Below, in pieces: positions 1,563 through 26,349 of a stretch of 64,000 nucleotides of DNA (its first letter is position 1; each line of letters begins with the position of its first letter). The position numbers and the translations under genes are program-made. The stretch comes from Euglena gracilis (taxonomy: Eukaryota): NCBI GenBank assembly GCA_039621445.1, contig CP154954.1:25060954-25124953 (forward strand), written 5' to 3'. The notes below the pieces were generated by a model. The model saw only the letters and a list, made by a program, of their open reading frames with translations. It was not told where the DNA came from and did no database searches.

Positions 1563-3156
<1,594 letters not shown>

Positions 3157-3170
3157 GTCTCTGTTTTCAG

Positions 3171-4479: not shown

Positions 4480-4783
4480 CTGGCTGTATTTTAGTCTGGT
4501 GCCGACCCCACCCCGGGGGGTGGTGCCTGCAGGCACTCCAAGGCACTCCCAATCCGACCCCCCCTCCGGGGGGGGAGGGTAGGGCACACGCCAAAAGTGC
4601 CCCAGCACAACCCCGGCGCCAAAGGCACCGGGGAACCAAAAATAGCCTATTTTCAAAGGAATGCGTCTGGGCACAGGCCCAAATCCGACCCCCCCCATGG
4701 GGGGGGTGTAGTGCCTGCCTGAGCAGGCACTCACAGGTACTCCGGACCCCCCCCTCCCCCCGGGGTTGGTAAAAAACAGCCTG
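4480..4783. mobile_element. hAT-like MITE, family C, 8-bp TSD TTTCCAAG
   Basis: TSD at 4472-4479 and 4784-4791. Ends ctggctgtatttta / taaaaaacagcctg. Closely similar to 14588-14897. Confidence 0.9.

Positions 4784-5632: not shown

Positions 5633-5634
<2 letters not shown>

Positions 5635-5672
<38 letters not shown>
5635..5672. repeat. (TG)n microsatellite
   Basis: Direct reading. Confidence 0.95.
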
Positions 5673-5673
<1 letters not shown>

Positions 5674-5833
5674 ACCCCCAAGGCAAGGGTGTATTCCAAA
5701 GGTGTATACTTTCACCCCAGCTCATTACCCCCCCCCCCCCAGGTTGCTGGGGCCAGTATCATCATCCCCCCCCCTTTAAGGGTTTGGCTTGGCTGCTCCC
5801 TTGGCCATTGGTGGCAACATGCCCCCCCCCCCC

Positions 5834-6100
5834 CAGGGCTGTGCGGAAATCCCTGAAACCCTATGGGCGGTGGTTGGGGAGTCGACCCCCCCCTCCCTGC
5901 TGGGTGGGGGGCGACCCCCCCCCCACCAGCACCAGGCCTTGTTATATTTTCTGGCGCCGATTTTTAGGTCACAATCTTCCTTCGGCGCCGAAGGAATTCT
6001 TGTGGGTTGTGTGGTGGGTGGGTGGGGGTCGACCCCCATTTTGCCAGAGGGCCTGATGGCGAGGTCGACTCCCCTCCCCAGACCTTCCCGTACATCCCTG
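5834..6100. mobile_element. hAT-like MITE with TIR CAGGGCTGTGCGGAAA / TTCCCGTACATCCCTG in a poly-C tract
   Basis: Imperfect 16-bp TIR, CAG...CTG termini, poly-C on both sides (compatible with a C8 TSD). Confidence 0.75.
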
Positions 6101-6304
6101 CCCCCCCCCCCCAGTTTGACCACAGTGGTTTCCCCAATCGATCCCCCCCCCCCCGAACCAGCATTCCCCTCTTTGGCCGAGGGTAAAAGAACTGTCATTT
6201 GGGGGGGGGGAGGGTACGTCATGTTGGGGAGTGAATGTGGTGCATGACTTTTCAGCCCTGCCTTGTGCTGTCGTGGTGGGCCTGTGGCCAGTCCACACAA
6301 TCAC

Positions 6305-6625
6305 CTGGTCACTGGCCGACCCCCCCCCCCCCCGAGGGTGGGTGACTGGTTTTATCAGAGTGATTGACTGGTTTTTTTTTTGCCCCGGACCCCCTTCCCG
6401 GGGGGGGGGGGTCGGCAAAAAATCACTAAAGTGACCCGGGGCCGAAGGCACTGGAAAACTTTTTTTTGGCTTTTTTTTCACGTTTGTGGTCAAATTTCCT
6501 TTGGATTCCAGAGCGGCCGACCCCCCCAGGGGGGGAGTGACTGACTTGTCTTCCAAAAAAGTGACTTACTGGTTTTGGAAAGAGTTGAAGTGACCCCCCT
6601 CCTCCCGGGGGTCGGTAAAGAACTG
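6305..6625. mobile_element. Dispersed repeat family D (gggtgactggttttt...gagtgactgactgg), probable MITE
   Basis: Related sequence at about 16740-17020 and 43940-44020. TSD not identified. Confidence 0.55.
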
Positions 6626-7486
6626 TATGGGCCAGCCTCTTTACTCAGTAATGGATCAAACTCTGTACATGGCCTGACTACCGTGGCTTCTGTGTCATTC
6701 ACGCAAACAAAAACGCCCCTCAACCATGCAAAAGCGTCGATTACTTTCATTTCTAAGAAAACCAGCAAACAATTTTAAACAAAAGAATATATGGTGTCTC
6801 CACTGTTCTCATTCATCTTTTTTTTTCATTCGCAGCCCAGAAACAAAAAGCCTGTTCCTCAATACAGCTCCTAAGGTTATTGGATGGGCAATTTTAATAT
6901 TTGGGCGGTCTGCAGCGAAATTGAAATCAATAAAACACCATTTCCAATAAAGGAAACACGCAAAATTTGAAGAAGAAGTATAAGAAAGTGGAGGCAGTGA
7001 TTTGGTCAAGGTGACCAATTTGGGCTATAAACTGGCCAAACATGGCCCCAAATCAACCAAATTGGTCATCTTGACCAAATCACTGCCTCCACAGCCAGCG
7101 CTGACAGGGTGCGTCACCCACCCAGTATTGACCACCTCGCCCCCTTGCATGGGCTGTGGATAGTGACAAACAAAAGTCACAAATTGGAAAAGTTTACAAC
7201 TTGCTTCAGATTTGCACAAAGCCCTGTGGCAGTGGTGCTGTGCGGGGCAGGGCTGTGCTGGTGAACACACCATCACCACAGCCCATGGGCTAACATGGGC
7301 TTTGGGCTTGGGGTTGAGTACCACCCACAAAGTCAAGGGGGTATAAAAATGATTCGGCACACTGTGCAAATGCAACCACATATGCATATGCAAATACAAA
7401 TGCAAGTGCACATACAAATACAAACCTGGACACAAACACAAATGGAAATACAAATTGCAGACACAAATGCAATACACCACAAGTTC

Positions 7487-9330
7487 AGTACAGCACAGCA
7501 CAGCACAGTACAGTACGCACACAGCACAGTACAGTACAGTACAGTACAGTACAGTGCAGTGCAGTGCAGTGCAGTGCAGTGCAGTGCAGTGCAGTGCAGT
7601 GCAGTGCAGTGCAGTGCAGTGCAGTGCAGTGCAGTGCCGTGCCGTGCCGTGCCGTGCCGTGCCGTGCCGTGCCGTGCCGTGCCGTGCCGTGCCGTGCCGT
7701 GCCGTGCCGTGCCGTGCCGTGCCGTGCCGTGCAGTGCAGTGCAGTGCAGTGCAGTGCAGTGCAGTGCAGTGCAGTGCAGTGCAGCACAGGACAGCACAGC
7801 ACAGCACAGCACAGCACAGCACAGCACAGCACAGCACAGCACAGCACAGCACAGCACAGCACAGTACAGCACAGCACAGCACAGCACAGCACAGCACAGC
7901 ACAGCACAGCACAGCACAGCACAGCATAGTACAGCACAGCACAGTACAGCACAGCACAGCACAGTACAGTACAGTGCAGTACAGTGCAGTACAGTGCAGT
8001 ACAGTGCAGTGCAGTACAGTACAATACAGTACAGTACAGTGTACAGTACAGTACAGTGTACAGTACAGTGTACTGCGTACAGTACAGTGTACTGCGTACA
8101 GTACAGTGTACTGCGTACAGTACAGTGTACTGCGTACAGTACAGTGTACTGTGTACAGTACAGTGTACTGTGTACAGTACAGCGTACTGTGTACAGTACA
8201 GCGTACTGTGTACAGTACAGCGTACTGTGTACAGTACAGCGTACTGTGTACAGTACAGCGTACTGTGTACAGTACAGCGTACTGTGTACAGTACAGCGTA
8301 CTGTGTACAGTACAGCGTACTGTGTACAGTACAGCGTACTGTGTACAGTACAGCGTACTGTGTACAGTACAGCGTACTGTGTACAGTACAGCGTACTGTG
8401 TACAGTACAGCGTACTGTGTACGGTACAGCGTACTGTGTACGGTACAGCGTACTGTGTACGGTACAGCGTACTGTGTACGGTACAGCGTACTGTGTACGG
8501 TACAGTGTACTGTGTACGGTACAGTGTACTGTGTACGGTACAGTGTACTGTGTACGGTACAGTGTACTGTGTACGGTACAGTGTACTGTGTACGGTACAG
8601 TGTACTGTGTACGGTACAGTGTACTGTGTACGGTACAGTGTACTGTGTACGGTACAGTGTACTGTGTACGGTACAGTGTACAGTGTACGGTACAGTGTAC
8701 AGTGTACGGTACAGTGTACAGTGTACGGTACAGTGTACAGTGTACGGTACAGTGTACAGTGTACGGTACAGTGTACAGTGTACGGTACAGTGTACTGTGT
8801 ACGGTACAGTGTACTGTGTACGGTACAGTGTACTGTGTACGGTACAGTGTACAGTGTACGGTACAGTGTACAGTACAGTGTACAGTGTACAGTACAGTGT
8901 ACAGTGTACAGTGCAGTGTACAGTGTACAGTACAGTGTACAGTGTACAGTACAGTGTACAGTGTACAGTACAGTGTACAGTGTACAGTACAGTGTACAGT
9001 ACAGTGTACAGTACAGTACAGCACTGTGTACAGTACAGTACAGCACTGTGTACAGTACAGTACAGCACTGTGTACAGTACAGTACAGCACTGTGTACAGT
9101 ACAAAGTGCAGTACAGTACAGTACTGTGTCCAGCACAGTACAGTGCTGTGTACAGTACAATACAGTACTTTGTGCAGTACAATGCACTACAGTGCTGTGT
9201 ACAGTGCAGTACAGTGTTGTGTCCATTACAGTCAGTACAGTACAATACCGTGTACCGCACAGTACTGGATACAGCACAGTCAGGCTGGGGGTAAGGGTTA
9301 GGGTCAGTGCTGTGTACAGCACAGTACTGT
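7487..9330. repeat. Compound satellite: pentamers CAGTA/CAGTG/CCGTG/CAGCA grading into 19-bp units TACAGTACAGCGTACTGTG and variants
   Basis: Direct reading. Source of the spurious long Cys/Thr/Val/Tyr ORFs. Confidence 0.98.
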
Positions 9331-10332
9331 GCTTCTGGACCATTTTGGCCAAGACCGCCAATTTTTTTGTCCCCAATTTTCTTGCCTCCAATTTTTTTTG
9401 GCACCAATCCCTCCCCTGTACGCTCGCTACGCTGCACCACACTACCAGTGCAGTTCAGGTTTCTTTTTCAGTCTGGAGCCCCCTGAGGGGGAGGGGTGGG
9501 TGGGTGGGTAGGTTTTGGGCTGGATCCCCCCCGGGGGATCCCAGGCCGGAGGGTTTGTGAAATTCTTCTAGTCCCCTCCAGCAAAAGTGCACTAATTCCC
9601 AAAACCACAATTTCCGCATTTTTTTCTGCAGTTTTCCCGCAATTTTTACGAAGCCTTCCGATATCGATTCCCTCCTACCTGAACTATGTTTCTCACAATA
9701 TAATGTACATACATAAGCCATATAATATACACTACAATAAATTTTGCAATTACAACTTCAATTACAATCATTATTACAATTGCAATTGCAATGAAGTACA
9801 ACACAATTGCAATAACAAAAACAAGCACGCGAGCACGCGAGCAAGCAAGCAAGCAAGCAACCAAACAAACAAACAAATGAATGGTGATGGAGGCAAGTCA
9901 TTCAATAAACAAGGATTTTGGGGGCATCTCCCTCCCTGTGTCAGACCACCCAAAGCCTTTTCTTTCTAGTGATGTCCTTGGTGTTTCTGCTCACACATGC
10001 ACACAGTCAAACCCATGCACATTTTTTCCCATGATAACTTGAGAACTCCCTAATACAATGTTTGAGCATCCTGGCGCATTTTCTGTGCCTCAAGAACCGT
10101 TGTCTTCTCACCCCCGCCGAAGGCTTTATCAGATCCGAAACCCTCGCCTTTGGTCTCTGCCCCCTCCCTCATTGGCTGGGAGGGTTCGACCCCTATGCTT
10201 TGCATTTAAGACGATCGACATCCAACCCCGAGCAAAAAAGACCGAAAAATAAATCAAACAAAAAACAAAAAAATAAACAAAACAAAAAATAAATAACAAA
10301 CAAAAAAATCCAACCCCAGTCGCACTGAACGC

Positions 10333-10558
10333 AGTGGAGACACCCCACCGGGAGGCGAAGCCGGGCCCTGGCAGCCACGTGTCGCCCACCGGGGGCAGCT
10401 TCCGCAGCAACGTGAAGGTCCCGATCCCCGGCGGGTCGGGAGGCCGGCTGTCGCCGAAGGCCCCGCCCTCCCCCCAGCCGGGACGGGCGCCAGTCACCCC
10501 CAGCAACCGCCTTTCCCCGAAGTCCCCGCCTTCCGACCAGGGGGACACAGGTCTCTGG
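10333..10558 (+). CDS. Pro/Ser-rich exon, probably upstream part of the alpha-kinase gene
   Basis: GC-rich island in AT-rich flanks, open frame VETPHREAKPG...SPKSPPSDQ. Boundaries uncertain. Confidence 0.6.
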
Positions 10559-11615
10559 GCTTTGACATTGCATATGAACACCGCTCAAAAAAGAGCAGAA
10601 AAAGGTGGAATGACTGGGGGGGGGTGTTCGGGGTTCCTTTGACGCTGGGTGGATACCCAATAAAAATGGTAGATTTGTTTCCAATTCCAAAGTGCAAGTA
10701 TGACCCCTCGAGGGCGTTTTCGCTAGGTATTGCTGACTGCCCATTGACCGTTCATTTTTGGGATAATTCATGTGCAAAATTTTTGGGTAAAATCCTTTTG
10801 AAATAATTTCAGAAGTTTTTAAGTATTACCCTGTGCTGTCGTCCAGTTGGCTCAAGATGCTTATACATCCCAAAAATCATTTTGTATTTTATACATTTGG
10901 GTTGGATTCCTTTTTTCATTCCATGGCCCTGTGGATTTGCCCAACCTCCGTGGGACTGCTCTCAGGCATCTGCAGGTAAACACCATTTTCCATGCACAAA
11001 ATACAATTACCCCCTTCCCCCCAAATGAACATCCCCCCCTCCCCAGTAAAGTGCAATGTCAAACTACACCCCCGTCCCCCCCTGCCCAGACAAGTTAGCC
11101 TGGGATGAAGCTAGTGGGACAGGGTTATTCTGATGTTGGCCATGCGCCGAAGGTTGCTCAGATTAAGAACCCCTGGCACGCGGCCTAATTTTGGGTCCGA
11201 ATTTGTTTTAATTGTGGCTTACGCCCAAATGCAATTCCTGACAGGGTTGCATTTTGCATTACATGCAAAGCGTGTCTTTTTTTTGGTCGCTCTAAACAGA
11301 AATGGCTTTATTGTTTTGGCACAATTTATAAATTGGCCTGAACTTGACCAGTTCATATGTTACAAATGGAACATCACCAAAATTTCCCGGCCTTGTCCTG
11401 AATGGTTCTATCGACAGGCTTCACATGGCATCTCCACACTGCTGCCTCCACCCCCATGGGGACACCAACAGTGAGAAATGGGGGTGATTTGTATTTTGGG
11501 GAGAGATTTATAATCTGGAGGTTATTTTTTTTTTGCAGAGACTCATGAAAAGTTGCCAAGCGAAATCAGCGCCAAAAAGCATTTTTACTCCAGGCACACC
11601 CTTCATATTGTCGTT

Positions 11616-11676
<61 letters not shown>

Positions 11677-14600
11677 CTTTTTCTTTCACGTTGTTTTTTT
11701 TTGATTTCACAATGCTTCTCCGTTCCTTTTTTTGAGCTTGCGTGCGTCTGTGCGCGTGTGCCCGGGTGCGCGGGTGCACCTGCCTGCCTGCAAGGCCTGC
11801 ACCTTCGCCAACCCCCCGGACAAGGACGCCTGCACCATGTGCGCCACCAAGAAAGGCTCCTCTGGGCCACGTCGGGAGAGCCCCTCGCGGCCGCTCCCTT
11901 CCGCCCCGCCGCTCCCCGCCAGTTTGCCAGGGCCGGCGTCGAGGGGGGCTGAGCCACCCAATGGCAGTGAGCGAATGGAGGAGCTTTGGGCCCCTGGGAG
12001 TGCCCGAAATGAATCTAAAGGTGACCGCCACCTCAGGCACCGGGTGGTGCGCTGTTATTTGGACCTGTCTGATTTTTGTTGATGTTCTTCAGAGTGGCGC
12101 CCCGACGTACAGTGGGGGGGGGTACTGGCTAGTCGACCGACTAGTCGGTCGACTAGTTCACCGACTACTAGTCGACCGACTAGTCGGTGGGGGGAACTGG
12201 CTAGTCGGTCGACTAGTCGACCGACTAGCCACTCTAATGTACCAAAAGGGGGGGGTCACCGACTTTTTAAGCCCCCCCCTCCAATACTGATTTGCCTTGT
12301 TTGGCCAAAAATTTCGTTGAACATATTTCAAACAGCGAAAAACGCACCATAAACATCCCTTTTGTTGCTCAACTGTCCCAGGGCCCCAAAATAACAAAAT
12401 CCCTTGTGTTGCCAAACCGTTTTGGAAGCCAATCCCTTTTGTTGCTCAATTGTCCCGGGGCCCCAAAATAACAAAATCCCTTGTGTTGCCGAACCGTTTT
12501 GGAAGCCAATCCCTTTTGTTGCTCAACTGTCCCAGGGCCCCAAAATAACAAAATCCCTTGTGTTGCCGAACCGTTTTGGAAGCCAATCCCTTTTGTTGCT
12601 TAATTGTTCCGGGGCCCCAAAATAACAAAATCCCTTGTGTTGCCAAACCCCTTTGGAAGCCAATCCCTTTTGTTGCTCAATTGTTCCGGGGCCCCAAAAT
12701 AACAAAATCCCTTGTGTTGCCGAACCGTTTTGGAAGCCAATCCCTTTTGTTGCTCAATTGTTCCGGGGCCCCAAAATAACAAAATCCCTTGTGTTGCCGA
12801 ACCGTTTTGGAAGCCAATTCCTTTTGTTGCTCAACTGTCCCAGGGCCCCAAAATAACAAAATCCCTTGTGTTGCCGAACCGTTTTGGAAGCCAATCCCTT
12901 TTGTTGCTCAACTGTTCCGGGGCCCCAAAATAACAAAATCCCTTGTGTTGCCGAACCGTTTTTGGAAGCCAATCCCTTTTGTTGCTCAACTGTTCCGGGG
13001 CCCCAAAATAACAAAATCCCTTGTGTTGCCGAACCGTTTTGGAAGCCAATCCCTTTTGTTGCTCAACTGTCCCAGGGCCCCAACATAACAAAATCCCTTG
13101 TGTTGCCGAACCGTTTTGGAAGCCAATCCCTTTTGTTGCTCAACTGTCCCAGGGCCCCAAAATAACAAAATCCCTTGTGTTGCCGAACCGTTTTGGAAGC
13201 CAATCCCTTTTGTTGCTCAACTGTCCCAGGGCCCCAAAATAACAAAATCCTTTGTGTTGACAACTTTGAAGGCTTTAGACGTGTTTTCTTTGAGATTCTA
13301 GTTCAAAGCAAGTCAAATCAATGTTGGGGGGGGGGCTTAAAAGGTCGGTGACCCCCCCTTTTGGTACATTAGAGTGGCTAGTCGGTCGACTAGTCGACGG
13401 ACTAGTCGACCGACTAGCCAGTTGCTCCCATAGCCAGTACCCCCCCCCCCCCCTGGTACCGACTAGGCCACCGACTAGTCGGTCGACTAGTCGGTAGGGG
13501 TACTGGCTAGTCGACCGACTAGTCGGTCGACCAGCCAGTACCCCCCCCCCCCAGTCTAAATATTGGGGCCCTTCAGAGTTACCATTAAAACTTTGGAGGT
13601 GAACTTATTATGTTATAAAATTGGGATTGGGACTGCTTTGGACAACCGGGGCTGTGGTTTTATTTAGACTCTGCGCTTGTGGCACCCTCCTATTGGGGGG
13701 GCGGGTTTAGCCGGGTTCAGGGGCTGCGAGTTGACATTTTTTTCTGTTGGACATTTCCCCCCCATTTTTCGTCACAAACCTCAGTTGGGGCGAACTGGGT
13801 TTTCAGGCCGCCCGGAATTCTCCCTCTTTGACTGCAGCTTGACACCTTCGGCTGGTCTGAGGGATGCGCTGACCTGATTCGACTGCAGCTTCCTATTCGC
13901 TTTCCAGCAACCTTTGGTAGGCGGGCGAGAAGGATCCTGCCTTTTGGCCATCGCTGGAGGCCACCCCTGCTCCGTCGGCGGAGGGGCCGTGGGTGTGCGA
14001 GGTCTGCACACTGCGCAACCCGGCGACGCTGATGCAGTGCAGCGCCTGCCTCGCGCCCTGCCGGAGCAAAGACCCGTCGCAGTCCCTCGCAGGCCCCCCC
14101 CCCCGAAATGGGGATGCTCAGCCCGGAATGCAGGTGGGGGGATGTGCAGATTTGTGCATTTCTTCAAATTGTACAAGAATCTTGCGCTTTTAACACGCTT
14201 TTCGGCATTTTTTTCTGCATTTTTGAACACTTTTTGGTTTTTCAGGTTTGTTTGTGCATTTTATTGTATTTTCCCCAATTTCACACATTTTTGCCTGTGT
14301 ATTTTTTTAAAAAAAAGTTATATTTCCTTGTTTTTTTCTGTGTGATTTTTTTGAAAATTTTTTTTTGTATGTTTTGGGATGATTTTTACATTTTTTTTAC
14401 ATTTTGATTTTTTTTTTTGCATCCCCCCCAAATGCACAGTTTGTGCATTCTTGCGCCTTTTGAGCATCATTGCCAGGGTACCGCATATCTCTGCAGAATG
14501 GCTTTCACTCCCTGTGCTTTCTCCCTCACAATTGACTTCTGCAACACTGCACTTTTTTCTGACCCCCCCCCCCAAATAAGACCCCACCAGACTGTGTTTT

Positions 14601-17600
14601 AGTCGGGTGCCGACCCCACCCGGGGGGGGGGGTGCCTGCCTGGGCAGGCACCCCAAGGCACTCCAAATCCGACCCCCCCAGGGGTAGGGGGGTAGGGCAC
14701 ACGGCCAAAAGTGCCCTAGCACAGACCCGGCGCCAAAGGCGCCGGGGAGCCAAAATGGCCTATTTTCAAAGGAATGTGCCTGGGCACAGGCCCAAATCCG
14801 ACCCCCCCCCATGGGGGGGGAGTGCCTGCCTGGGCAGGCACTCATAGGCACTCCGGACCCCCCTCCCCCCCCCCGGGGTTGGTAAAAAAACAGCCTGGAC
14901 CCCACCCCAGGATTTCCGGGAAAATCCAACAATACACACCACCGAAAACAGCAAAAGACCCCAAAATGGGTGATTTTTCCACATTTTTTGGGTTTTTTTT
15001 GCTCCTTTCAAATGTGTTGCAATTTGCATTTTTTGGGGACAATTTTCATTCATTGCCAAAAATCACCTTTTTTGACGTATTTTTGGGCCATCCTACCGGA
15101 AGGTTTTTTTCGGCTGAATTTTTCAAAAAAAATTCAAAAAGTAGATAGCCCCCCAAAATAAGACCCCCTGGGTCTTTTTAGCAACGGACCCAAAAAGCAG
15201 ACCCAGGGTCTTTTTTTGGGGTGGGTTTTGTTGCAAGGACGCTATAATCTCATGAATTTTTGGACGTCAACGCCACAACTGTAGTGTGATCAAGGAAGTT
15301 CGAAACGAAAAGTTTCAGGGCTTCTATTTGGTACAGTTACGAATTTTCCTCTTTGAGGTGAGACGTTCCAATCACACTTTGGTTAAATTGCTGAGGGAGT
15401 ATGTGGTTTCTAAATCTTGCCCCATCCCCTGCCATGGGGGGCTGCTGGCGAACTTCAACAACGACGCCGAGATCCAGAAGTACGTCCAGGCCAGGGTTGT
15501 ATGGGAAGCTCCGCAGACATGAGGTAGGTGGTAGGGGGGGTCACCCCCCCCCCCTAGGGGGGTAAGGTCTAAGGTGGTAGGGGGGGGTCACCCCACCCCC
15601 CCCCCTAGTTTCGGAAGGGGGGTCCCCCACCCCCCAGAGATTCCCATACAACCTTGGTCCAGGCCCAGAAGGATTTGCTACAGTTGCTGCGTGCGGGACG
15701 TCTGACGCAGGGCGCGTACCAGAAGATGGCGCCCAAGGCCTCTGCTCAATCCGAAACCATCCCCAGTGGGAGGGGGGTTCTCCATCCACTCGACAGGGAG
15801 GGACAGGGTATTACGTGAGCGTTGGCTTTGTACAGGGTTTTTTTTTATTTGTGGACCCCGGGGGGGGGAGGAGGTCCACGACTAAAAGGGGGGGTAGGGT
15901 GGGTGGGTCCGGCCGAGACCCCCCCCCCTGAGGGGGTCCCCCCAGGGAGGAGTGGGTTATATTTTTCGGCGCCTTTGGCGCCGAATTTTTTTGAAAAGGT
16001 GCTATTTTTAGCAATCTTTGGCCATTTTCAGGGAAAAGAAAGTGGGTTCCCCAGGACCCTCCCCGCGGGGGGGGGGGGACCCCGGGGCCCCAGGGGGTGG
16101 GTGGGTGGGGGGACCCCCCCTCCCCCCAGTCTTTAAAAAAACCCCTGTCAGGAGAGGGGAAGGGCCTCTCCCGCGGACCCCCCTGGAACCAAAAGCATTT
16201 CTTCTCCGGGGCTTTGTGCCGGAAGACTGCTTTTTTATCACATTTCTTTGTTCATTTGTTGAAAAGATTGCGAGTTCGGCCACTTTTTGAAGCCCCCCCC
16301 CCCAGAATTTTCTTGGGCAGAAGGGGGAGGGGGGAAGGGGGCACCAGATCCCCCTTCCCCCCTAGAAGGGGGGGGGTGCAACCCGGGGGGTAAAAAAAAA
16401 ACCTGCGCAAATCACTCTTCTTCTCCCGGGGAGGCGGGGGGTTCCGAGCAGGGCTTTGGCGGCGCAGGGGCTGCAGGCCTCCTCCTCCAAGCCGGGCCAC
16501 CCCGGCGCGGCCAGCCCGGCGGCGGTGAAGGACGCGTTCGAGCTGCCGCAGGGCGTGTCGGAATCGGTGCTGAGGTCCGCCTCCCTCCGCCCGCCTTCCA
16601 GCCAACCAAGCATCCCTCCCCCGGCGGTGGGAATGTGTTTGTGGAACAGACTTCCACGAAGCACTTGGCCGAAAACGTGACCGAATCCAATTTTTTTCCT
16701 GGCATGCTGGACCAAAAGCTAGAATCCATGAAAGGTCAGTCAAACCCTGTAGGTTTATTTCCGGAGTGACTGACTGGATTTTTTTTTTTGCTCCGGACCC
16801 CACCGGGGGGGGGGGGTCGGCCAGGACTGGCCTAAATTTCGGCGCCGAAGGCCCCAGAAATTTTGGGGTATCGACCAAAGTCTATTCATTTTTGGCCGTT
16901 ATGGCCGAAATGGCCAAGTGACCCTCAGGGTCCTCCCCGAGGATGGGAAGTGGGTGACTGGTTTTTCAAAAGTAACTGACTAGTTTTTTGGAATGAACTC
17001 CCCCCTCCGGTGAAGACCTCCCTTCTGGAGATAAATTCTTTTCTTTTCCTGTGCTTTGTGCCCCATCCTGAAGAACGTCATTCTCCCTCAACCCTCTGTT
17101 ATCCTGTGGCGCATTTGCTCAAAACGCCCACACTGGCCTGTTTCGATATCAGCAGTCTCCACCACATATGTCGCCTTGTGGCCCCAAATACCACCCTCCC
17201 TTGCTGAAAGAACACCACCCTTGTGTGGTGAACAACGGATAAACCGTCATTTCCCAGTCGCTGGTATTCCAGAGGTGAGGCATTCTTACCTTGGCATGTT
17301 CCTCGACCGCGAGGCGCATTGCCCCAGCGTCGATCTGGAACTCACAGGCCATTCCCGTGTGGGGGCAGCTTGCTACCTGCTTGAAGTCGGAGTGCTTCAG
17401 GCGGCCTTCCACCTGCTTGTACTCCTTCTTCCATTTTTCCAACGTCTCCAAGTCATTGACCACGGGACAGCCCCCCCCCCCCCACCCACCACGGGTTGTT
17501 GATCACAGCTTAGTGGTCTTGGGACAAGCGAGGGTATGATTATGACACGGGGTCCTGTCTCTCGCAGGCAGTGGTATGACTGGGACACCAAGCGGTGGAT

Positions 17601-20600
17601 GGAGGAGCACGTGCAGGTGGTGGTGGACTGGCAGCCCCTGGCCCAGGGCAACCTCCGCGTGGCGGTGCGGATGCTGGACCTCTCCCGGCCAGGGTTAGAC
17701 GGGGGGTTGGGGGTGGGGGGTGGCTGTCCCCGACCCCTTCCGCCTGCAAGGGATGTTCCTCTGAAGAAAGACTTTCCCGTTGGTGCCTCGTGCATCGGTC
17801 CAATTCAGCCCCGAATGATTTCCACAAAGTGCAACGCTGTCCTTTTTGGCAAGGTCGGAGGCAAAAATCAGTGATCCAGACTGCATTATTGGCCAGGTCG
17901 GGCTGTTCTCTGAATTCCACCCCCTGGGACTTGCGTTAAACCCTGCTCCTGGCCCAAGGGGCAACGGGCTTGTGTGGCAAAGTACCTGAAGGTGTTGCCT
18001 TATCTTGTGCCACGTGGCTCAGTCAAATTATCAAGTTGCTGAATGGTTTTTCTTTTCAATCAAGTGTATTTATCTTTATTCTAATTCATTTATATGTCTG
18101 TAGATTTTTCAATTAACCAATACCTGCGAAAAGAGCACCTTATGATTCAATGTGGTTGTATTTTTCAGAGAGCCTTATTTTAAAAATCCTGTTTTTTTGA
18201 AAGCAGGAAAAACGAAAAGTTTAATTTTTAACAATGTTTGAGGGTGGCAGAGTACTTCCTGAATTGATATATCCCATTGCCGAAAGGAACTGGGAACGGC
18301 ACAGTCCCTTCAGACGAGGGTGTTGCAGGCCCTCCTGAATACCACATATCTCGATTATCGATGCCTGGAGTTAGAGTCCAAGGCGTTTTTTTTCCCTTTC
18401 TGTTGGGTGTATTTTCCAAACTCAAAAAACTTCCAAATCCAAACCACTTCACCAGCTGCTGTGGGGTAACCCTAACACTCACCCCACATGAAATTGAAAC
18501 CCTTCCTGAAATTCTGGTAAATCAGAGATGCCCCTCTTTTCAACGTACCCCATCGTTGTGTCATTCATGAACCTTGACCTCATGAACCTTGTCAACCTGT
18601 GACCTTGAACTTGTGTCATTCATGAACCTTTCAATCTTCAAATGGTTCCCAATAAAATTAAAAAAAATGCCTGCTCCACAGAGAGCCTTGCGTGACAACC
18701 TGAAGAAGAAAGGTTTGGAGATAGGCTTAGGGTTACGGTGAGTTCTGGGTGGAGGAGTGGTTCTTTGAAGGAGGGAATAGATCCCGGAGTTACGTCAATT
18801 TTCTCTAGGGTTTTTTTTTAAAAAGTATGATGCCTGCTTCCGCTGTGGATGTGTCAGCCGAAGTTGGTCTTTTGTGGGGGGGGGAGCTGGTTACCGGGAA
18901 AATAAAATTTGAGCAGGAAAGAACGTTTCGCAAAAAGTTCTCGTATTTTTGTCAGGATTTCCAACGTGGTTGATGCAGAATTTTCAACTCCAACTTAACT
19001 CTGCCAAGGATGTGATGATTGCTGTTATGATTGCTCCAATAAGATAGCAAAAATTTCAGTCCCCTCCCCCACAGTGTTGCAAGGAGTTTTCTGTGTTCAA
19101 AATCTCAGGGCTGGGAAAATCATAAGATTTTGGAGGTAATTCTCATGGATATTGCCAGAAGAGCAATTTTGGAATTTTTCAATCCAGAATCTTCCGGACT
19201 TTTTCCAGTTTTGTCCAATATTTCCTTCTTTTCTTGTCATTGATCATTGATCGCCCCCATACAGATTTATGCCCCCAATCACAGTTTTGAAAGGGGGACA
19301 CACACCTTTGTTCACTGCTTTGCGGAAACGCTGGAGGGCACTCCCCGACCCCTCCCAGATTTCTTTTTAATCAAGGTCGCAGGTGGGTGGGTGCTCTGTG
19401 CAGGAGGGGAGGCAAGCACTTTGGACCCCCCTGGGGGGTCGGGTTTTGGGGTTGGTAATGTAATAGCACACCCCCTGGCACCGAAGGTGCTGGGGGCCAA
19501 AAGTGGCCATTTTCAAGGGAAATTGACTTGGCCGGGTCCCAAATCCAACCTCCTGGAGGGAGGGTTGCTTTGGGAGGCGCCCCATAGGGCAAGGCACCCC
19601 TCCCCCCCCCCCTCAGGGTTGGTAAACAGAAGCCAGACCCCTCCTCCACGGGGGAGGGTGGTGGATTTTTGAGAGCGGGTGGGTGGGTGGGTGGATCGCT
19701 GGCCAACCACACCTCGGTCCACCATGGGTCAATCTGGCCCGGCCAAAGGCCAGGCCGGATAGTTTTTCAAGGGTTTCCGGCCAATTTTTTGGTGGTTGGG
19801 TGGGTGGGTCGACCCCCGGGTGGGGGGAATCGTGGGTGGGTGGGTTTTCAAAAGGGGGTGGGTGGGGTTGGGCCCAGGAAAAGTGCATTAGTGAAACTGT
19901 GGTCGGGATGTGCGCCACCCCAAGTTCCGAGTTGCACCACAGGACCCCCCCCCCCCCAAGCGGCGCCTGGGGTTTCCGTCGCTCTGCACAGCCGGAGCAC
20001 TACGACCCGAAGGAGGGGGACCAGCAGTACTTCGTGGACGTGGAGATGCAGGCGCACTGTCGGGCAGTGGCGGACGCCTTCAACGCTGCCCGGCCGCCGA
20101 AGGAGGTCTCCTTCTTGGAGGCCGGGCCTTTCTCTCTGGGAGCTCACTCCCCCCCCCCTTCCCCCAATGGTTCGGTCGGTCCCCACCGAGGACGGTTTGC
20201 CTCCAGTGGCTGGGATGCTCCACACCCGGCTCCGTCAAGATAACCCATTTCCCCACCTATGGGGGTCCTTCCTTTTGGCTCGCTGGCCAAAAAACCATCC
20301 GGACAATGTCACCTGGTCTCAATCTAGGGGCAGAGTGAATGGAAAGATGCCACCATTCACATTTCACATTAAAATGGATATGATGTCAGGTGCCATTTGG
20401 AATCCGTCTGGGCATTGGCGGTGCTCCCTTTTCGCCAACAGATGAACCCTCATTCGCACTTGTGCCGTCACTTGCTCTGGGCTGAATTTCAAGGTGCGGC
20501 CGACCCTACCCTACCCTGCTGGTACCCCAAGGTACTCCAATACCCCTCTCCCCCAGGGTTTGCCAAATCCAGCCTGCCCCATTGTTGTGGTTGGTACCCT

Positions 20601-21948
20601 GTTTTTGGAGGCCTGTCGTTTTGGGCAGAGGCCAGTGTTACCCTTCCCATTGACGTGTGATATGCCATCGTTGGACAAACTTGTCAGCTGGCTGTAGGTG
20701 TCTACCTGTTTGGGGTTGCTAGGAAAGAGGAACAGGGCTCGTCGCAGGCATGGGTGATCTGCCGCTCTGGCAACGTGCTACCAAACCAACGGGTGTGCTT
20801 TGTTTGCCTTCGTGCATTTCTCGGAAGAGCTCAAAGTTCCCCAAGAAAGAGTATGATTATCAATTCAGCCTTTTAACCTTTCTCTGATAATTTGGCTTAT
20901 ATCATACTTTCATGTTTTGGATAAGTTGGATTATATTTCATCTTACAAATTTGGGAAAGCGCTATTTCCCTTCATAAAATGTCTAATGGAGTTTATTATT
21001 TTTTTGTGCTCTTCCGTAAGAGGTTCCTATGTGTCCCCCCTCTGATGGTTTCCTGCCTCTCTGTGTGGCCTCAGGTCCTCGCAGCCGAACCGTATATTGA
21101 CCCCACAAGCTACTTGAAGCACAACAACAACCACACATCACCCCCCGTTTTGCCTCTGTGCCTCACTTCACGCACAGGGGAGCACACACCAGCCGGTGGA
21201 CCAGCCCCAGGATGGGGTGATGTGTGGCCCCAATTGGGGGTTTGTTCATCCCCTGGCCCGGAACACGCCGCAGGCGTTCTCCCATTTCTCCTGGGAGTAC
21301 ACCCAGCACCGATTCATGATCGTCAGCCAGGCTGTCAGGCAGATGGATATCCGCCCGATGCCGCAATTTTTTTTATTGGCATCCCTGTCCCCCAGATGAC
21401 CTCCTGTCGCCTCATGTCTGCCCGCTGTGGTTTCAGTGGCGCATTTCCCCTCCGGCCTCATTCTGTTTTGTCACCCGAGCCTTTCGCCGGCAGCCTGCCT
21501 GGGATATCCAGGGAGTGGGGGACGTGTACACGGACCCCCAGATCCACAGTGCGACCCATGCAGTTGCTTTGTGCCTTCGGTGTCGATTACTTACGCCGCT
21601 CCTGGGTGCGGGGTGGTTGGCGGGCAGGACCCTGGGGGATTCTCCGACTACAACAAATGGTAATGGCTGGGGAAGCTGTTTTGTCAACATTGGGGGGAGG
21701 GTGGTATCTGAGTTCCTTTGGGTAGTACGAAGGTACTCATCACCCATTCTGCAGTCCGCAGGGTTGAACGCCATTTTGCCCAAACATCAGCTGAATTTGC
21801 TGTGCAGCCCAAATTTTCATTGGAATGGCCTGGGGGGGGGTGGGCTTGACGGAGGGGGATCAACTGCATGCTTGAAAAGGACCCTGATATTTTCATTTTG
21901 ATTGAGGAAGCACCCACCTCCCATTGGACAGAAAAAAATACACTGTGG

Positions 21949-21986
<38 letters not shown>

Positions 21987-22233
21987 CGCTGAGCTTGCCT
22001 CGACCCTCTCCTGTGGTGGGCACATGTATGGCGCTGACGACGATGGAACGGGGAAGGGACCCTGGGGGATGGGCAACTGCGGCATGGAGGCCAGGCTTTG
22101 AGCACCGTATTATCACCCCACCTGCAAGTGCACGAAACACCAATGAATACTCAGCACCCAGCAAGCAAAAAGAACACAGACAATACCCCCCCCCCCCACA
22201 CACACCCACCCACCCACCTGACGCACCTACACA

Positions 22234-22293
<60 letters not shown>

Positions 22294-25200
22294 AACGCAC
22301 TCACTCACTCACACACACACGCACCCACACCCACACCCACACACACCCACACCCACCCACACGTGTGCAATTTCGGATGGATGAAAATGCATGCACAATT
22401 CTCAAATAAAAAAAATCCATAAAACAGGGCATTTTAGAAACAACAAGAAAGTGGGTGTATCTTCGTTCAGTTTTGGATTGAATATGAATGAATATTGCTT
22501 TCTGATGCTATTTTAATTTTGGTCGGACAGGACATTAAAGTTTGCAAAAAGCTGGTGTTTTGTGTGTGTGTGTGTGTGAAATGTTTTCCTGATCTGATGA
22601 ACGACGAATAAAAGGACAGCCCACATCTCTTGGCTCCCCCGGTTGTGTGGAGGCCATGCAAGTAGGACACCTCTGATTCCCTGGATCCGCCGCAGGATAT
22701 TCTGACATTTCAACCCCACCCCCACTGATACCCCCCCCCCCCACTTATAACCCCCCCCCCCTCGGGCCGACCAACCAAACCGGATCCTATAACCCCCCGG
22801 GGAAGAAAAATGGAAACCGCCGGGGACGATTTTTCCAGCCCCAAACCACCCAAATACTGATTTTTTGGCAATTTTTTTTTGAGACCGACCATCATCAAAA
22901 ATGCCATTTTGACGAAATATGCCGAAAATTGCCAATTTGGGGGGTTTCGGGTCATTTTGGGGGGGGGTCGGATTTTCACCAACAATTCCGGATCCTATAA
23001 CCCCCCCCCCCCTGCCGGCCGACCGGCCGACCAACCTGACCAGAACCTATAAACCCGGGTGGTTTATGTTTGTGTTGTGTTTGATCTTGATGTTAGGATG
23101 TTAGTTGATGTTGGAGTTTGAGTAGGGTTACAGTTAATTTTGGAATGTGGTTTGGGTTGTGGTTTAAGCGAGAAATTGGGGTGGGTTGGGTGTATCATGC
23201 CTAAATTTAGCCTGAATTAAGGCCAAAAATGTGGCTTTGAACTCCGACCAAAATTTTCGTCAAATTTTTGTGTTAATTTGCCAGATCTTTGAATACAACT
23301 TCTCACCCCAACCCAACTTCTATAATTAACCCTAAATCAGAATCGTGGGGAAGGTGGCCTCCAAAATGTTCTCCCGACACGGATTGCCTTCAAGGATCAA
23401 ACAATATTATTTTTATCATTGTTCATTTTCATCATTTTATTGAAGGCAACCATCTGCATTTCTTCTGCCAAGAAAATTCTCTCGCCAGAGAATGCCTTTT
23501 CAAACAATTATTTTGGGGGTACAGTTTTTTTTTTGGCCTGGTGTTGCTCCACCAGAAAACTGCTGTTATGGTCGTTGCGGCTGTTCAGATGGGGTCACCC
23601 GCGCCCCCATAGGGTGGAGGTGAGGTCCTTACCGACCCCCATGGAGGGGGGGTCGGTACGGTCGGTACGACCCCCTCGATGACGGCTGCCCCCTCCAAGC
23701 CTGCCGCTGGGCATCAACAAGTTCCTGGAGACCCACCACTGCAACGCCGTCTGCCGCGCGCTGGGCATCGCCCGGCCCTCCAAGGTCGCCGTCGCGCAGC
23801 CCACCACGTCCTCCGGCACGCAGGTCGGCGGGCGACTCTCCGATGAAGAAATACAGAGGAATGGCTGCTGGCCGTTTGCCACCCACGCAGAAGTGTCCGC
23901 AGCCTATTTTGCGCGCGGGAGGTTTGCTCAGCAGGACGTTGGAAGAAAGAAATGGACGCGCTGCTTTAATAGCCCGCAAAGTTGTAGTTTTGGGTGCTGC
24001 CCTTATGGTTCAAAGGGCGTGGAAAGTTAGATTTGTAAAGTAAGTTAGTTTTCATTTCTTTTTTTTAAGAAATGTATTCTGTGCATTTTGTGTCACCAAC
24101 GTTGGATCAATTTCTTTCCCTTTCTCTACCTCTTACATTTCAGGTACCGTTGAGGGACAACAGGAGCACTCCGGCGTGGAATTTCAAGCTTCATGACTTC
24201 GACCAGCGAAACCCTCCTTCCGCATGCCGCCGTCATCTGGCCTCCCTGGCATTTCAAATCAAGCACCAAGCCTCGTCATTGGAATTAGAGGTTGGTTATG
24301 TATCTGAAACTTCACACAAAAATTTCCCCCTCCCTGTTTTTGTCCTGTGTTTTTATCATGTATTATTTCATCTGTCCACAAACTTGACTTCAGGGCAATT
24401 TTGGTCCAGGTGTGCCCTAAGCACAAACTCTACAACTCTGCCTTCATTTGACAGCCTGGGCCGACCATGGTCCTTGGCTAAAGGAAGCCCAGACGATACC
24501 AGAGCTCCCAAAGAAGGTGCTCGCCTCCCTGTACAAGCTTTCTGGAGGCAAACTTGTTTAAGTGGACTCAGTGCACTAAATTGTTTTCTTCTCAAGTTTG
24601 CTGCCAAAAAAGCCAAAAAACTTGTTCCGTGCAATACCAATGGGTTGGGTTTTTTTCTTCTGTCCGCAAATTGTGTCTTTCCGTCAACACGGGGGGGTGC
24701 TTAACCCCCCCCCCCCTGTGTCAACGCCACATTCCCTGAAAAATGCCGTGTGTTGGATAGGGATGAGGTTGGGGATTTCTTCGCGATTCAGTGCCCTGAT
24801 CAACGGCTGCGTGTCTCCAGACCAATGAGCACAGGCGGTCCCTCAGTTTGCTAACGGGGCCGGGGAGCTTTCGCTGTGACCATCCGTGACCTGCGGCCGG
24901 TGCGGGACGGCATGGACAGGGGCGGGTTCCCCGTTGTCTCAGGCAGAACTCTGCGGTGGCCGGCCACCACGGACCGGAAATGGGCAGGCAGCAGCATTTG
25001 AAGAACTGGGGCAATGGAATGGGGCCATCCATAGCCGCCAGGGAAACTGAACACTGACACTGAAAGACAGGGGCAGAGGAAAAGCGGTGTTGAGGAACAA
25101 CGGTTTGAGCTTTGAAGGGCGGGGCAAAAAAGGAGCACAAACGGAAATTGGAGTAACCCCCCTCCCCCAGTAGAAGCACGGGTGCGCTTATAGCGGACCG

Positions 25201-26349
25201 CCGCCTCTGGCAGCGGGGGTTGCCTTCTATTTGGACCCTACCTCCGCGATTTTTTGCTGGTTTTCTTCAGAAATCCCATGGGGGGGTGTGCTTGTAGCGA
25301 ACCGCCGCTTTTGGCGGCGGCGGCGGCAGGGGTGTACTCTTTTATTTCGACCCTGTGCTTGTAGCGGCCCCGTGCTTCAACATGCTGTTTGAGCTTATCG
25401 TGCCATCATCATCACAAATCAATTGTGTGTTTTCCAGACTTGATGACTTTAGGGGGGGCGTGGCTTGCTCTCCATGTGCTCCTCCCTCCCCTGCGGCCCA
25501 ACGTTGGAGGATTTGTCCTTGTTGAAGATGGAGATGGAGGAGTTCAACCACATTGTGGACCTTTTCAACGGCCTCGATAAGGATGGCAATGGCGTGGTAT
25601 GGTCCCCTTGCCTCGGCTTTCTGTACCTTTGCATGTGGCAGGGGGCGGATGGCCCACACCCCATCACCATTTCAGCCACATCCTTGAGTACCGGCTGAAA
25701 AAATGAGTGATATGTGGGGGATGATGGGAGCGGCGCGGCAGGGGAGCATGTTTGGTTTTAGCTTTCAGTTTCAGTTTCAGTTTGAGTTTTCCCGACGTGC
25801 AGTCAAGAGGACCGGGGCTGGGGTTGTGGTCCCAGCAGGGGTTGCTCTTCGGGCATTGGAACTCCCGAATGATGGGCAGGGGTCTGTGCGCAATTCAAGG
25901 GTGATGAGGATAGCCTGCAAATGAAACTCATTTTTATCAAGGAAACAATCCATAGAAAACGAACGCTTACAAAGTGCCTTTTTTTTGAGGGATGGGGTCG
26001 AGGGATTCATGGCATGATAATATTTTTTTGTGTTTTATGACTTTTTTGATTGATGTCTGATTTTGTGGTCATTTGTGCAGTGGATGGTTTCAGCCACCCT
26101 CGAAGCTTTGCAGTGGCCGCTCGACGCTCTGCAGCCGGCCACCTCGCTTTTCTGCCTCTCTTCCGCGCCACCCCCATCCCCCCTCCCGCGCCACAGCTGA
26201 CGCCGGACGAGGTGGTGGCGATGCTGTCCCGCATGGACTCCGCCACCTTCGCGTTCAACCGGGAGAACACGCAGTACCTCCTGCAGCTGGCCCAGAGCTC
26301 CGAGATCTCGTTCAAGCAGTTCCTGCTGTGGTACAAGGGCGTGGAGTGA
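10333..26349 (+). CDS. Multi-exon gene, 5' end unresolved: RanBP2-type zinc finger x2 + alpha-kinase (eEF2K/MHCK family) + EF-hand protein
   Basis: Exons about 10333-10558(?), about 11786-12046, 13921-14086, 15437-15488, 15662-15730, 16464-16574, 17568-17686, 17951-17991, 19992-20119, 20747-20792, 21075-21128, 21232-21324, 21503-about 21547, about 22024-22088, 23709-23823, 24144-24200, 24882-24898, 25500-25596, 26197-26349. From the zinc-finger exon onward they join in one frame and give ordered alpha-kinase motifs: PLAQGNLRVA, CVAKY, YFVDVEMQ, AEPYI, KHNNNWGFV, TPQAFSHFSW, IVDIQGVGDVYTDPQIH, GMGNCG, HHCNAVC. Confidence 0.9.
11624..11680. repeat. (TTTC)n microsatellite
   Basis: Direct reading. 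Confidence 0.9.
11786..12046 (+). CDS. Exon with RanBP2-type zinc finger 1 (ACKACTFANPPDKDACTMC)
   Basis: C-x2-C-x3-N-x6-C-x2-C pattern. Phase-0 donor gtgcgc at 12047 is compatible with the acceptor at 13920. Confidence 0.8.
12114..13553. mobile_element. Foldback-like element with long palindrome-rich TIRs enclosing a 77-bp tandem array
   Basis: 12114-12293 is inverted relative to about 13315-13553 (ggggggtactggctagtcgacc... / ...gaccagccagtacccccc). AGT directly flanks both ends. Confidence 0.8.
12354..13259. repeat. Tandem array of about 12 near-identical 77-bp units
   Basis: Unit aatcccttttgttgctcaactgtcccagggccccaaaataacaaaatcccttgtgttgccgaaccgttttggaagcc. No unique spacers. Confidence 0.95.
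13921..14086 (+). CDS. Exon with RanBP2-type zinc finger 2 (WVCEVCTLRNPATLMQCSAC)
   Basis: Full W-x-C-x2-C-x3-N-x6-C-x2-C motif. AG acceptor at 13919-13920. 3' boundary inferred. Confidence 0.85.
14588..14897. mobile_element. hAT-like MITE, family C, 8-bp TSD GACCCCAC
   Basis: TSD at 14580-14587 and 14898-14905. Termini cagactgtgtttta / taaaaaaacagcctg. Confidence 0.9.
15489..15661 (+). other. Nonconventional intron (173 bp) that is also an intact TIR element with 8-bp TSD GTCCAGGC
   Basis: Removal gives YVQ-AQKDLLQLL in frame. cagggttgtatgggaa (15492) pairs with ttcccatacaaccttg (ends 15656). GTCCAGGC at 15484-15491 and 15657-15664. Confidence 0.85.
15731..16463 (+). other. Nonconventional intron (CAA...TTG variant)
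   Basis: gcccaaggcctctgctc pairs with gagcagggctttggc. Removal gives QKMA-QGLQ in frame. Confidence 0.7.
15833..16147. mobile_element. MITE related to 31495-31765, nested in an intron
   Basis: Termini cagggttttttt / aaaaaaacccctg, shared gtggaccccggggg body. TSD not recognisable. Confidence 0.7.
17687..17950 (+). other. Nonconventional intron (264 bp), CAG at +4..+6, CTG at -8..-6
   Basis: ggccagggttagacg pairs with cgttaaaccctgctc. Removal gives DLSR-PKGQRACVAKYLK. Residual TSD ctcccggc / ctcctggc (7/8). Confidence 0.85.
19356..19636. mobile_element. hAT-like MITE related to family C, 8-bp TSD ACCCCTCC
   Basis: TSD at 19348-19355 and 19637-19644. Ends cagatttctttttaa / ggtaaacagaagccag. 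Confidence 0.75.
20120..20746 (+). other. Nonconventional intron, or GC-AG intron if shifted by 1 nt
   Basis: ggccgggcctt pairs with agggctcgtc. Removal gives SFLE-AWVI. Residual TSD ttggaggc / tcgcaggc (6/8). Confidence 0.7.
21129..21231 (+). other. Nonconventional intron (103 bp) with a perfect 14-bp terminal stem
   Basis: ccacacatcacccc / ggggtgatgtgtgg. Removal restores the kinase motif KHNN-NWGFV. No GT-AG. Confidence 0.9.
21325..21502 (+). other. Nonconventional intron (178 bp), CAG at +4..+6, CTG at -8..-6
   Basis: agccaggctg / cagcctgcct. Removal restores the catalytic motif FMIV-DIQG. Confidence 0.9.
22089..23708 (+). other. Nonconventional intron (1620 bp), CAG at +4..+6, CTG at -8..-6
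   Basis: ggccaggctt / aagcctgccg. Removal gives GNCGME-GINKFLETHHC. Confidence 0.85.
22198..22365. repeat. (CA)n/(CACC)n microsatellite. A (CT)n tract lies nearby at 21951-21983
   Basis: Direct reading. Confidence 0.9.
24201..24881 (+). other. Nonconventional intron (681 bp), CAG at +4..+6, CTG at -8..-6
   Basis: gaccagcgaaaccctcc pairs with ggagctttcgctgtga. Phase-0 join LHDF-IRDLR. Confidence 0.7.
25500..26349 (+). CDS. Last two exons: EF-hand region (loop DKDGNGV-LTPDE) and stop
   Basis: GT-AG intron 25597-26196 restores a canonical 12-residue loop ending in Glu. A second, degenerate hand ends EISFKQFLLWY. TGA at 26347-26349. Confidence 0.85.

Follow-up and report, generated by a model that had tools for sequence, protein, structure and literature searches.

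A MITE-like insertion in a coding exon of an alpha-kinase gene of Euglena gracilis, missing from the transcript

We analysed a window of 64,000 nucleotides of Euglena gracilis DNA (assembly GCA_039621445.1, contig CP154954.1, positions 25,060,954 to 25,124,953 of the forward strand), and all positions below count from the first letter of this window. The window carries a gene for an alpha-kinase, Table 1. One coding exon of this gene is interrupted by a 165-bp insert that has the structure of a MITE (a miniature transposable element bounded by inverted repeats), a non-autonomous DNA transposon, and a transcript of the gene lacks it. The initial annotation had read the insert as a recent transposon insertion that now works as an intron.

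A protein search with the zinc-finger exon at 13975-14130 (Pfam Zn_ribbon_RanBP, E-value 3.4e-8) found P0001 (EG_transcript_3313), a transcript-derived protein of 745 amino acids with precomputed Pfam matches to PF02816, PF00130 and PF00641. It was placed on the plus strand by 25 exact matches that span 1280-26346. Residues 328-341 (NFNNDAEIQKYVQA) correspond exactly to 15451-15492 and residues 339-363 (VQAQKDLL...QKMA) exactly to 15657-15731, i.e. both flanks of the insert are exonic. Across the insertion the protein reads ...EIQKYVQAQKDLL... (...QKYVQAQKDLL...). Because VQA, the translation of a 9-nt repeat that is present on both sides of the insert, occurs only once in the protein, 173 nt are absent from the mRNA, the insert together with one copy of its flanking duplication. 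The frame YVQAQKDLL, which had been expected to be restored by the removal of these nucleotides, is thereby confirmed, the insert is not retained in this transcript, and the proposal that the insertion works as an intron is supported.

Two runs of DNA contigs (X1 and X2) and two RNA runs with the same species label (X21 and X24) were compared with the window. The summed RNA depth (X21 / X24) is about 3.0 / 2.8 in the bin 15386-15479, only about 0.8 / 1.0 in the bin 15574-15667, and about 6.8 / 4.9 in the bin 15668-15761. RNA reads that leave at 15732 go on with the letters at 16466 onward (9 in X21 and 7 in X24), and therefore the next intron is fixed. An upstream exon start at 15437, derived from a CTG rule, was rejected, as the transcript places the start at 15450/15451. 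A protein search for longer proteins with 16467-16679, a query that overruns the true exon end at 16575, gave 1991 candidates, none of them at E <= 0.001.

The insert is bracketed by two copies of GTCCAGGC, seen both by direct reading and with a repeat finder. The exact direct repeat reported by the repeat finder is one base longer, GTCCAGGCC (9 nt, 15484-15492 / 15657-15665). The 16-nt ends of the insert are inverted repeats that agree at 15 of 16 positions, and with looser matching the inverted arms extend to 21 nt at 90% (19/21, 15491-15511 / 15637-15657). The single mismatch between the 16-nt ends is G15494 against T15654, which would be a G.U pair at the RNA level. The interior holds two hairpin modules of the type G-run/TCAC/C-run, spaced by 46 nt and 83% alike. 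The duplication on both sides of a 165-bp insert with 15/16 ends is what the initial annotation had described.

If the insert were retained, it would bring an in-frame TGA at 15520-15522, where the open reading frame (ORF) 15256..15522 stops inside it. The ORFs that cross the insert are read-throughs of G/C runs, a Pfam search of these read-throughs gave no match, and the element is short and without coding capacity. An Rfam search of the insert returned 15 matches with E-values up to 1, all far under the gathering scores and none indicating a known RNA family, and a metagenome scan with the first 24 nt of the element gave no matches. In the features by which MITEs are recognised, the insert has terminal inverted repeats, an abutting duplication identical at 8 of 8 positions, and a short non-coding body. 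A 9-bp duplication was considered and rejected: a ninth matching C is present in both informative elements, but it is the first base of the inverted end.

This arrangement of ends and duplication is far beyond chance. We estimate that about 1.9e8 position pairs within 3 kb, a probability of about 1e-8 for a 15/16 inverted repeat and one of 1.5e-5 for an abutting exact 8-mer lead to an expectation of about 3e-5 such arrangements in 64 kb. As a control we used 40 CAG...YTG pairs with inverted ends of at least 13/16, tandem arrays left out, together with 40 offset controls. A flanking repeat of 8/8 was found in 4 of the 40 pairs, while the offset controls reach at most 6/8 (0/40 higher). The core TGTAYGGGAA occurs four times in the window (6085, 15498, 15641 and 33236) against 0.33 expected, and none of 100 shuffles reaches four.

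The insert belongs to a mobile, multi-copy family, because many unlike flanks meet its left terminus and because the word depth rises about a thousandfold above that of the flank. In X1, 26 contigs start to match at 15491 or 15492 while their preceding letters are unlike those of the window (agreement 0.41-0.51); X2 has 19 + 12 of them. The summed word depth in the bin 15480-15573 is 100070 against 25.9 in the flank in X1 and 632072 against 170.9 in X2, a ratio of about 10^3 that is not a copy number and to which the G/C-run modules may contribute. The multi-copy evidence covers the left terminus only; neither full-length copies nor the right terminus turned up. No position in 15492-15656 shows another letter at 5% of the depth or more, so this copy is close to the reading of the abundant copies, among those at least 95% alike. 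With the exact duplication, the 15/16 ends, the non-coding body and these unlike flanks, the earlier proposal of a transposon insertion stands.

In X1 and X2 alike, the contig of the right flank has its first base at 15655. This is only 2 nt within the element and further out than repeat content by itself would require. The start would be explained if the strains of the DNA runs had a variant at the TTG/CTG position discussed below (15654), but nothing shows such a variant.

Nonconventional introns whose ends pair and whose flanks carry duplication-like repeats are a well-known feature of euglenids, and they are reported to leave as circles (PMC11282704, PMC12501133), full-length and after the conventional introns. 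The published, genetically defined code for Euglena nonconventional introns is 5'-N3CDG-/-CH'GN5-6, followed by R as the first exon base (PMC12501133), and the nonconventional consensus of E. gracilis is CCAGG at +3 to +7 and CCTG at -9 to -6 (PMC11170887). When the 173-nt intron is placed at 15489-15661, it begins with GGC followed by CAG at +4 to +6 (15489-15494), and positions +3 to +7 are CCAGG, identical to the consensus. The 3' spacer is 5 nt long (GTCCA) and the first exon base, G at 15662, is a purine. The ends are also predicted to pair in the RNA. A 19-bp terminal helix, 15489-15507 / 15641-15659, is found in both the minimum free energy (MFE) and the centroid structure, and the MFE of -111.2 kcal/mol (z -3.05) is matched by none of 200 shuffles. 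From these sequence signals, removal by the nonconventional machinery appears most likely.

Taken as a whole, we consider the following account probable. A 165-bp MITE with CAGGG-type ends would have inserted into the alpha-kinase coding exon and duplicated the 8-bp target GTCCAGGC. In the pre-mRNA the ends of the MITE would pair to form the 19-bp helix, and the nonconventional machinery would cut at a distance of 3 nt ahead of CAG and of 5 nt behind its paired TTG. These cuts would remove the element and one duplication copy's worth of sequence, 173 nt in total, and the rejoined exons would have the pre-insertion sequence, because the cut falls at the same point in both 8-bp copies.

Table 1. 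Features of the insertion, its host gene and related elements in the window.
Feature	Positions	Strand	Remarks
Host gene: alpha-kinase with C1 domain and RanBP2-type zinc fingers	1280..26346	+	25 exon pieces; first 40 residues not placed
Upstream exon, residues 328-340 (NFNNDAEIQKYVQ...)	15451..15488	+	3' end slides within 15483-15492; RNA reads in bin 15386-15479
Downstream exon, residues 341-363 (...AQKDLLQLLRAGRLTQGAYQKMA)	15662..15732	+	ends at 15732, not at TGA 15816
173-nt intron in code-fitting register, GGC-CAG ... TTG-GTCCA, then exon G	15489..15661	+	nine other registers give the same mRNA
Left 8-bp target-site duplication GTCCAGGC	15484..15491	+	identity extends one base, to 15492
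Right 8-bp target-site duplication GTCCAGGC	15657..15664	+	direct reading, repeat finder
MITE-like insert, 165 bp, non-coding	15492..15656	+	
Left terminal inverted repeat CAGGGTTGTATGGGAA	15492..15507	+	left terminus of the repeat family
Right terminal inverted repeat CAAGGTTGTATGGGAA	15641..15656	-	15/16
Internal tandem pair of hairpin modules	15526..15600	+	copies 15526-15554 and 15572-15600
Intron 13, second MITE-like element (256 bp, 264 nt removed, intron 17687-17950)	17690..17945	+	ends CAGGGTT.../...AACCCTG
Related element, 267 bp	5834..6100	+	the two ends agree at 13/16, right end and target 16-mer at 14/16; C-run flanks
Short remnant, about 68 bp, ends GGTTGTATG... / ...CCCGTACAGCC	33183..33250	+	
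1324-bp non-coding element, perfect 16-nt ends CAGGGGTTTTCTTAAG, exact 8-bp duplication ACCTTGGC	52763..54086	+	

We compared the intron with five kinds of known systems. With the nonconventional introns of euglenids it shares the absence from the mRNA, the sliding borders, CAG at +4 to +6, CCAGG, the 3- and 5-nt spacers, the exon purine, the paired ends and the duplication-like repeats. It differs from them by a TTG (G.U) in place of CTG, a pairing of 19 bp where a few pairs are usual, an intact repeat of 8-9 nt, one register with GC-AG, and a body taken from a high-copy repeat family. Like introner elements, the MITE-derived spliceosomal introns known from Micromonas, Aureococcus and dinoflagellates (PMC11282704), it is a short non-autonomous element with inverted ends that is removed precisely, and its duplication helps to define the borders. 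However, introners use GT/GC-AG sites and the spliceosome (PMC11282704), whereas the best-fitting signals here are the paired ends and the fixed spacers.

By its mode of working, SOS splicing is the closest system. In C. elegans as well as human cells, paired transposon ends trigger an excision that seems to be independent of the spliceosome, with ligation by RTCB, and the factors of this process are AKAP17A, CAAP1 and RTCB (PMC12779559). In SOS splicing, and by analogy here, the pairing of inverted ends in the mRNA marks the excision and the interrupted gene is rescued. SOS splicing is called imprecise (PMC12779559), whereas the removal here restores the pre-insertion sequence to the base. 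The word Euglena has no occurrence in the available text of that paper.

The fourth comparison is with MITEs of the hAT superfamily, whose mark is an 8-bp duplication and ends beginning with YARNG. The insert, with GTCCAGGC next to CAGGG, fits this mark, and so do ACCTTGGC at 52763 and CTCCCGGC/CTCCTGGC at 17690, although the target locus taken alone permits a 6-bp parse. It resembles hAT MITEs in the 8-bp duplication, the ends beginning with CAGGG, the small non-coding body and the intron-like behaviour once inserted. In 1994 Giroux reportedly described Ds elements that are spliced from maize transcripts. From the duplication and the CAGGG ends, the superfamily may be hAT-like, with Merlin as the alternative. 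In the literature searched no hAT elements are reported for E. gracilis, and the only DNA transposons found reported there are Merlin elements, two families with 8-bp duplications and ends finishing in 5'-GG (PMC8101967). The length of the duplication fits Merlin, but the ends of the insert begin with CA or CCA and not with GG, and Merlin was set aside.

Several observations weigh against a MITE insertion that is removed by the nonconventional machinery. The parse of the target locus is not unique, as the locus can be read equally well with a 6-bp duplication (TCCAGG) and ends that each gain one base; in this it differs from hAT MITEs, and also in that no transposase or autonomous partner was seen, though no search aimed at a transposase was made. 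A blastn search of the insert against the window found no second close copy, only G/C-run matches and weak end matches to the element at 5834-6100, about 65% alike at both ends (E-values 5e-4 and 4e-3). A search with the 16-mer allowing up to 3 mismatches gave 3 matches against 1.21 expected, and 11 of 100 shuffles reach 3, which is not significant alone. With an RNA depth of 2.9 (X21) and 5.3 (X24), the bin 15480-15573 equals the exons; we ascribe this mostly to further copies of the element, since the letters ahead of 15492 are unlike in five X24 reads, and some retention is possible. Among the 15 joints listed (there are 202 further ones) all are repeat joints of DNA contigs and neither the intron junction nor a circle junction is among them, so the splicing evidence consists of the transcript-derived protein and the depth profile.

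Further points of this kind concern the signals for removal. The trinucleotide at -8 to -6 is TTG (15654-15656) and not CTG, which departs from the CH'G of the code, and positions -9 to -6 are CTTG where the consensus has CCTG. In one test intron, each of the single substitutions tested in CAG or CTG abolished splicing (PMC12501133). The base that breaks the code is also the sole mismatch of the inverted repeat, and pairing is kept there as G.U. Finally, ten equivalent registers are possible, with the donor after 15483 to 15492; nine of them are non-canonical and one, 15490-15662, is GC-AG.

The last point leads to the rival that survives best, which we nevertheless regard as unlikely. It keeps the same insertion, but the GC-AG intron 15490-15662 would be removed by the spliceosome, using sites supplied by the duplicated target (CAG followed by GC), as in the introners of Micromonas. 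The register does begin with GC and finish with AG, and it begins with GCCAG, in line with the 659 annotated GC-AG introns of E. gracilis, whose single prominent base is a G at position 5 (PMC11170887); yet GCCAGG is a poor fit to the E. gracilis 5' consensus GTGTG (PMC11170887), and the predicted 19-bp helix would bury both splice sites. While TTG departs from the nonconventional code (PMC12501133), the spacers of 3 and 5 nt and the purine at the exon start fit that code exactly. In E. agilis, 0.8% of the introns have signals of both kinds, and for these hybrid introns the noncanonical route was judged likely (PMC12501133).

A related observation concerns the GC-AG class as such. A GC-AG intron with G at +5 is what a nonconventional intron beginning with N-GC-CAG gives when it is slid by one base, as happens here. 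Part of the class of 659 introns (PMC11170887) may thus be nonconventional introns in another register.

It is much less probable that the insert is no DNA transposon at all, and that it is an intron that spread through RNA, by reverse splicing or by reinsertion of a circle, with ends and repeat that merely reflect the needs of the splicing code. Nonconventional introns are reported to leave as circles, as mentioned above, and the code by itself demands CAG...CTG ends and fixed spacers, but an exact 8-bp duplication is not explained by a route through RNA. In addition, the 1324-bp element has like ends and an 8/8 duplication in a repeated unit without a mapped exon, and the element at 5834-6100 lies inside another intron, free of splicing selection.

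Slightly less credible again is the possibility that the insert marks a null allele and is never removed, the spliced-looking transcript coming from an empty-site allele or from a paralogue. A protein sequence cannot separate alleles, the intron junction is missing from the listed joints, and 11 of 333 nearby bases are not the same in the window and in the DNA contigs, which indicates several haplotypes. On the other hand, the DNA contig 15183-15515 is one unbroken piece in both X1 and X2; it crosses the duplication without branching there and covers the first 24 nt of the insert. At 15483, 6 of 7 RNA reads carry T, the base linked to the left end of the insert in the DNA contigs. Among the rows listed no empty-site joint is found either, which is not proof, as contigs drop rare variants. 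A chance layout of repeats in a genome rich in repeats and G/C runs can practically be dismissed, even with G/C-run hairpins filling the window and a 16-mer search that is not significant by itself, as the arrangement, with its expectation of about 3e-5 and no offset control above 6/8, also matches a transcript junction exactly.

Elements with related ends are found elsewhere in the window, and an alignment of these ends gives the consensus CAGGGTTGTACGGGAAG. The initial annotation had linked the insert to a free MITE at 5834-6100 by shared ends. The right end of that element does match at 14/16, but the element is not free, since it sits in intron 4 (5499-6645) of the alpha-kinase gene, and the likeness is limited to the termini and the ends described above. 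The remnant that had been noticed at about 33181-33250 was found again, with related ends and the core at 33236.

The 1324-bp element is part of a repeated unit (about 3075 bp, 99-100% identity), with a copy of the element at 55838-57161 and its left end also at 48396. Because the unit is repeated with this identity, the three sightings are one insertion that was copied with its surroundings. No exon is mapped there, and the element has the same geometry at a site in which splicing has no role.

We placed 24 introns in the host gene and compared their flanking repeats, which in order are 0, 0, 2, 0, 1, 0, 4, 0, 2, 9, 5, 0, 4, 2, 4, 3, 3, 0, 1, 2, 0, 1, 0 and 1 nt. The intron described here has the longest repeat (9 nt), against 0-5 nt in the other 23, and with 173 nt it is the second shortest of the 24. 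Helices ended by CA...TG that leave 8 nt outside are found in nine introns, and four others leave 6, 9, 9 and 10 nt; introns 7 and 18 were placed by hand in this comparison. Intron 13 contains a second MITE-like element and fits the published code fully, GGC-CAG ... CTG-CTCCT followed by G. Its flanking 8-mers, CTCCCGGC and CTCCTGGC, match at 7 of 8 positions. In the eight introns besides the target whose helices leave 8 nt outside, the 8-mers match at 26 of 64 positions, compared with 45 of 192 in shifted controls, and a binomial test against 0.27 gives p 0.012, driven largely by intron 13.

The spacers of the code, 3 nt and 5 nt, add up to the length of the 8-bp duplication, and we infer that the two are linked. 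All three informative duplications end with GGC. A conserved C at +3 would therefore be explained, and so would the larger number of contigs that begin to fit at 15491 than at 15492. Tentatively, and with more doubt than the account of the single locus, the nonconventional code could be the RNA-level mirror of the insertion geometry of one transposon superfamily (3 + 5 = 8; CAGGG-ended and hAT-like). Most of the nonconventional introns, which number hundreds of thousands, would then be old insertions of such MITEs, the machinery would be a precise relative of SOS splicing, and the families would still be making introns. If this is true, the repeat lengths of slidable introns should show a tail that ends at 8-9 nt, agreement between the 8-mers around CAG...CTG should be better than by chance, and the preferred target should end with GGC, explaining the conserved C at +3. 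In the literature searched no relevant paper joins nonconventional introns with hAT; '8 bp' and 'hAT' are absent from the available text of PMC11282704 and 'duplication' from that of PMC12501133. This is weak evidence that the link of 3 + 5 with 8 is unpublished, as subscription papers and supplements lay outside the search.

Judged by these repeats, the intron is the youngest-looking one of the gene. Its duplication is intact and its ends differ at one base, while the duplication of intron 13 has lost one of eight positions. Yet the duplication and the insert's left end are also present in contigs of both DNA runs whose sequence over 15183-15515 departs from that of the window at 11 of 333 bases, and because of this the insertion is not private. 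The word young, as used in the initial annotation, therefore holds relative to the other introns, with an intact duplication against repeats of 0-5 nt, and does not hold in the sense of a new insertion private to this sequence.

In intron 11 (15733-16465, 733 nt) the flanking repeat is GGCGC, 5 nt long, and the ends CCCAAGGCCTCTGCTC / GAGCAGGGCTTTGGCG pair. It has no CAG...CTG in the positions of the code and may be one of the nonconventional introns outside the published code. A G/C-run stretch in it, 16067-16120, is 74.5% like part of the insert. Intron 9 (14540-14915) holds a repeat far commoner than the family of the insert, with a summed word depth in X1 of 228,000-604,000, where single-copy flanks have about 26-40; it contains many internal joints, and several of its positions vary. 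Intron 8 (11924-13974) shows two RNA junction forms one base apart, with loose ends before 13973 and 13974 and 4-5 reads each in both RNA runs; they reflect either an allele or an alternative register shifted by one base. The same intron contains a 77-bp tandem array at about 12300-13260 between long inverted repeats of the GACTAGTCGGTCGAC type, 12100-12260 and 13370-13560. In intron 5, the stretch 7000-9500 consists of about 2.4 kb of short tandem repeats of the CAGTA/CAGTG type that are open in six frames, with spurious ORFs of up to 809 amino acids.

A MITE origin of nonconventional introns was proposed in 2013, before any transposon was known in euglenids (PMC3935182). In 2024 a review gave MITEs as the likely origin (PMC11282704), and in 2025 it was still a suggestion, with 'origins ... 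remain unclear' (PMC12501133) and 'plausible to assume' (PMC12621601). In E. agilis 71.8% of all introns are nonconventional (PMC12501133), and the machinery that removes such introns is still unidentified (PMC11282704). The genome-wide study of 2025 left 'slidable' introns, those with flanking repeats and 84.4% of all, out of its motif work (PMC12501133), and the intron described here belongs to that class.

The kind of intron is already known, and the locus is an unusually clean case of it rather than a new system. Every link of the chain is present here: a multi-copy element, its ends and its 8-bp duplication both intact, lies in a coding exon and is missing from the transcript, and the same gene holds what appears to be an older sister in intron 13, with a duplication of 7/8. 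The TTG in place of CTG is a natural variant with which the splicing code can be tested, and the 'slidable' introns are where the youngest insertions should be sought. If the account given here is correct, the locus would be direct evidence for a transposon origin of the nonconventional introns of euglenids.

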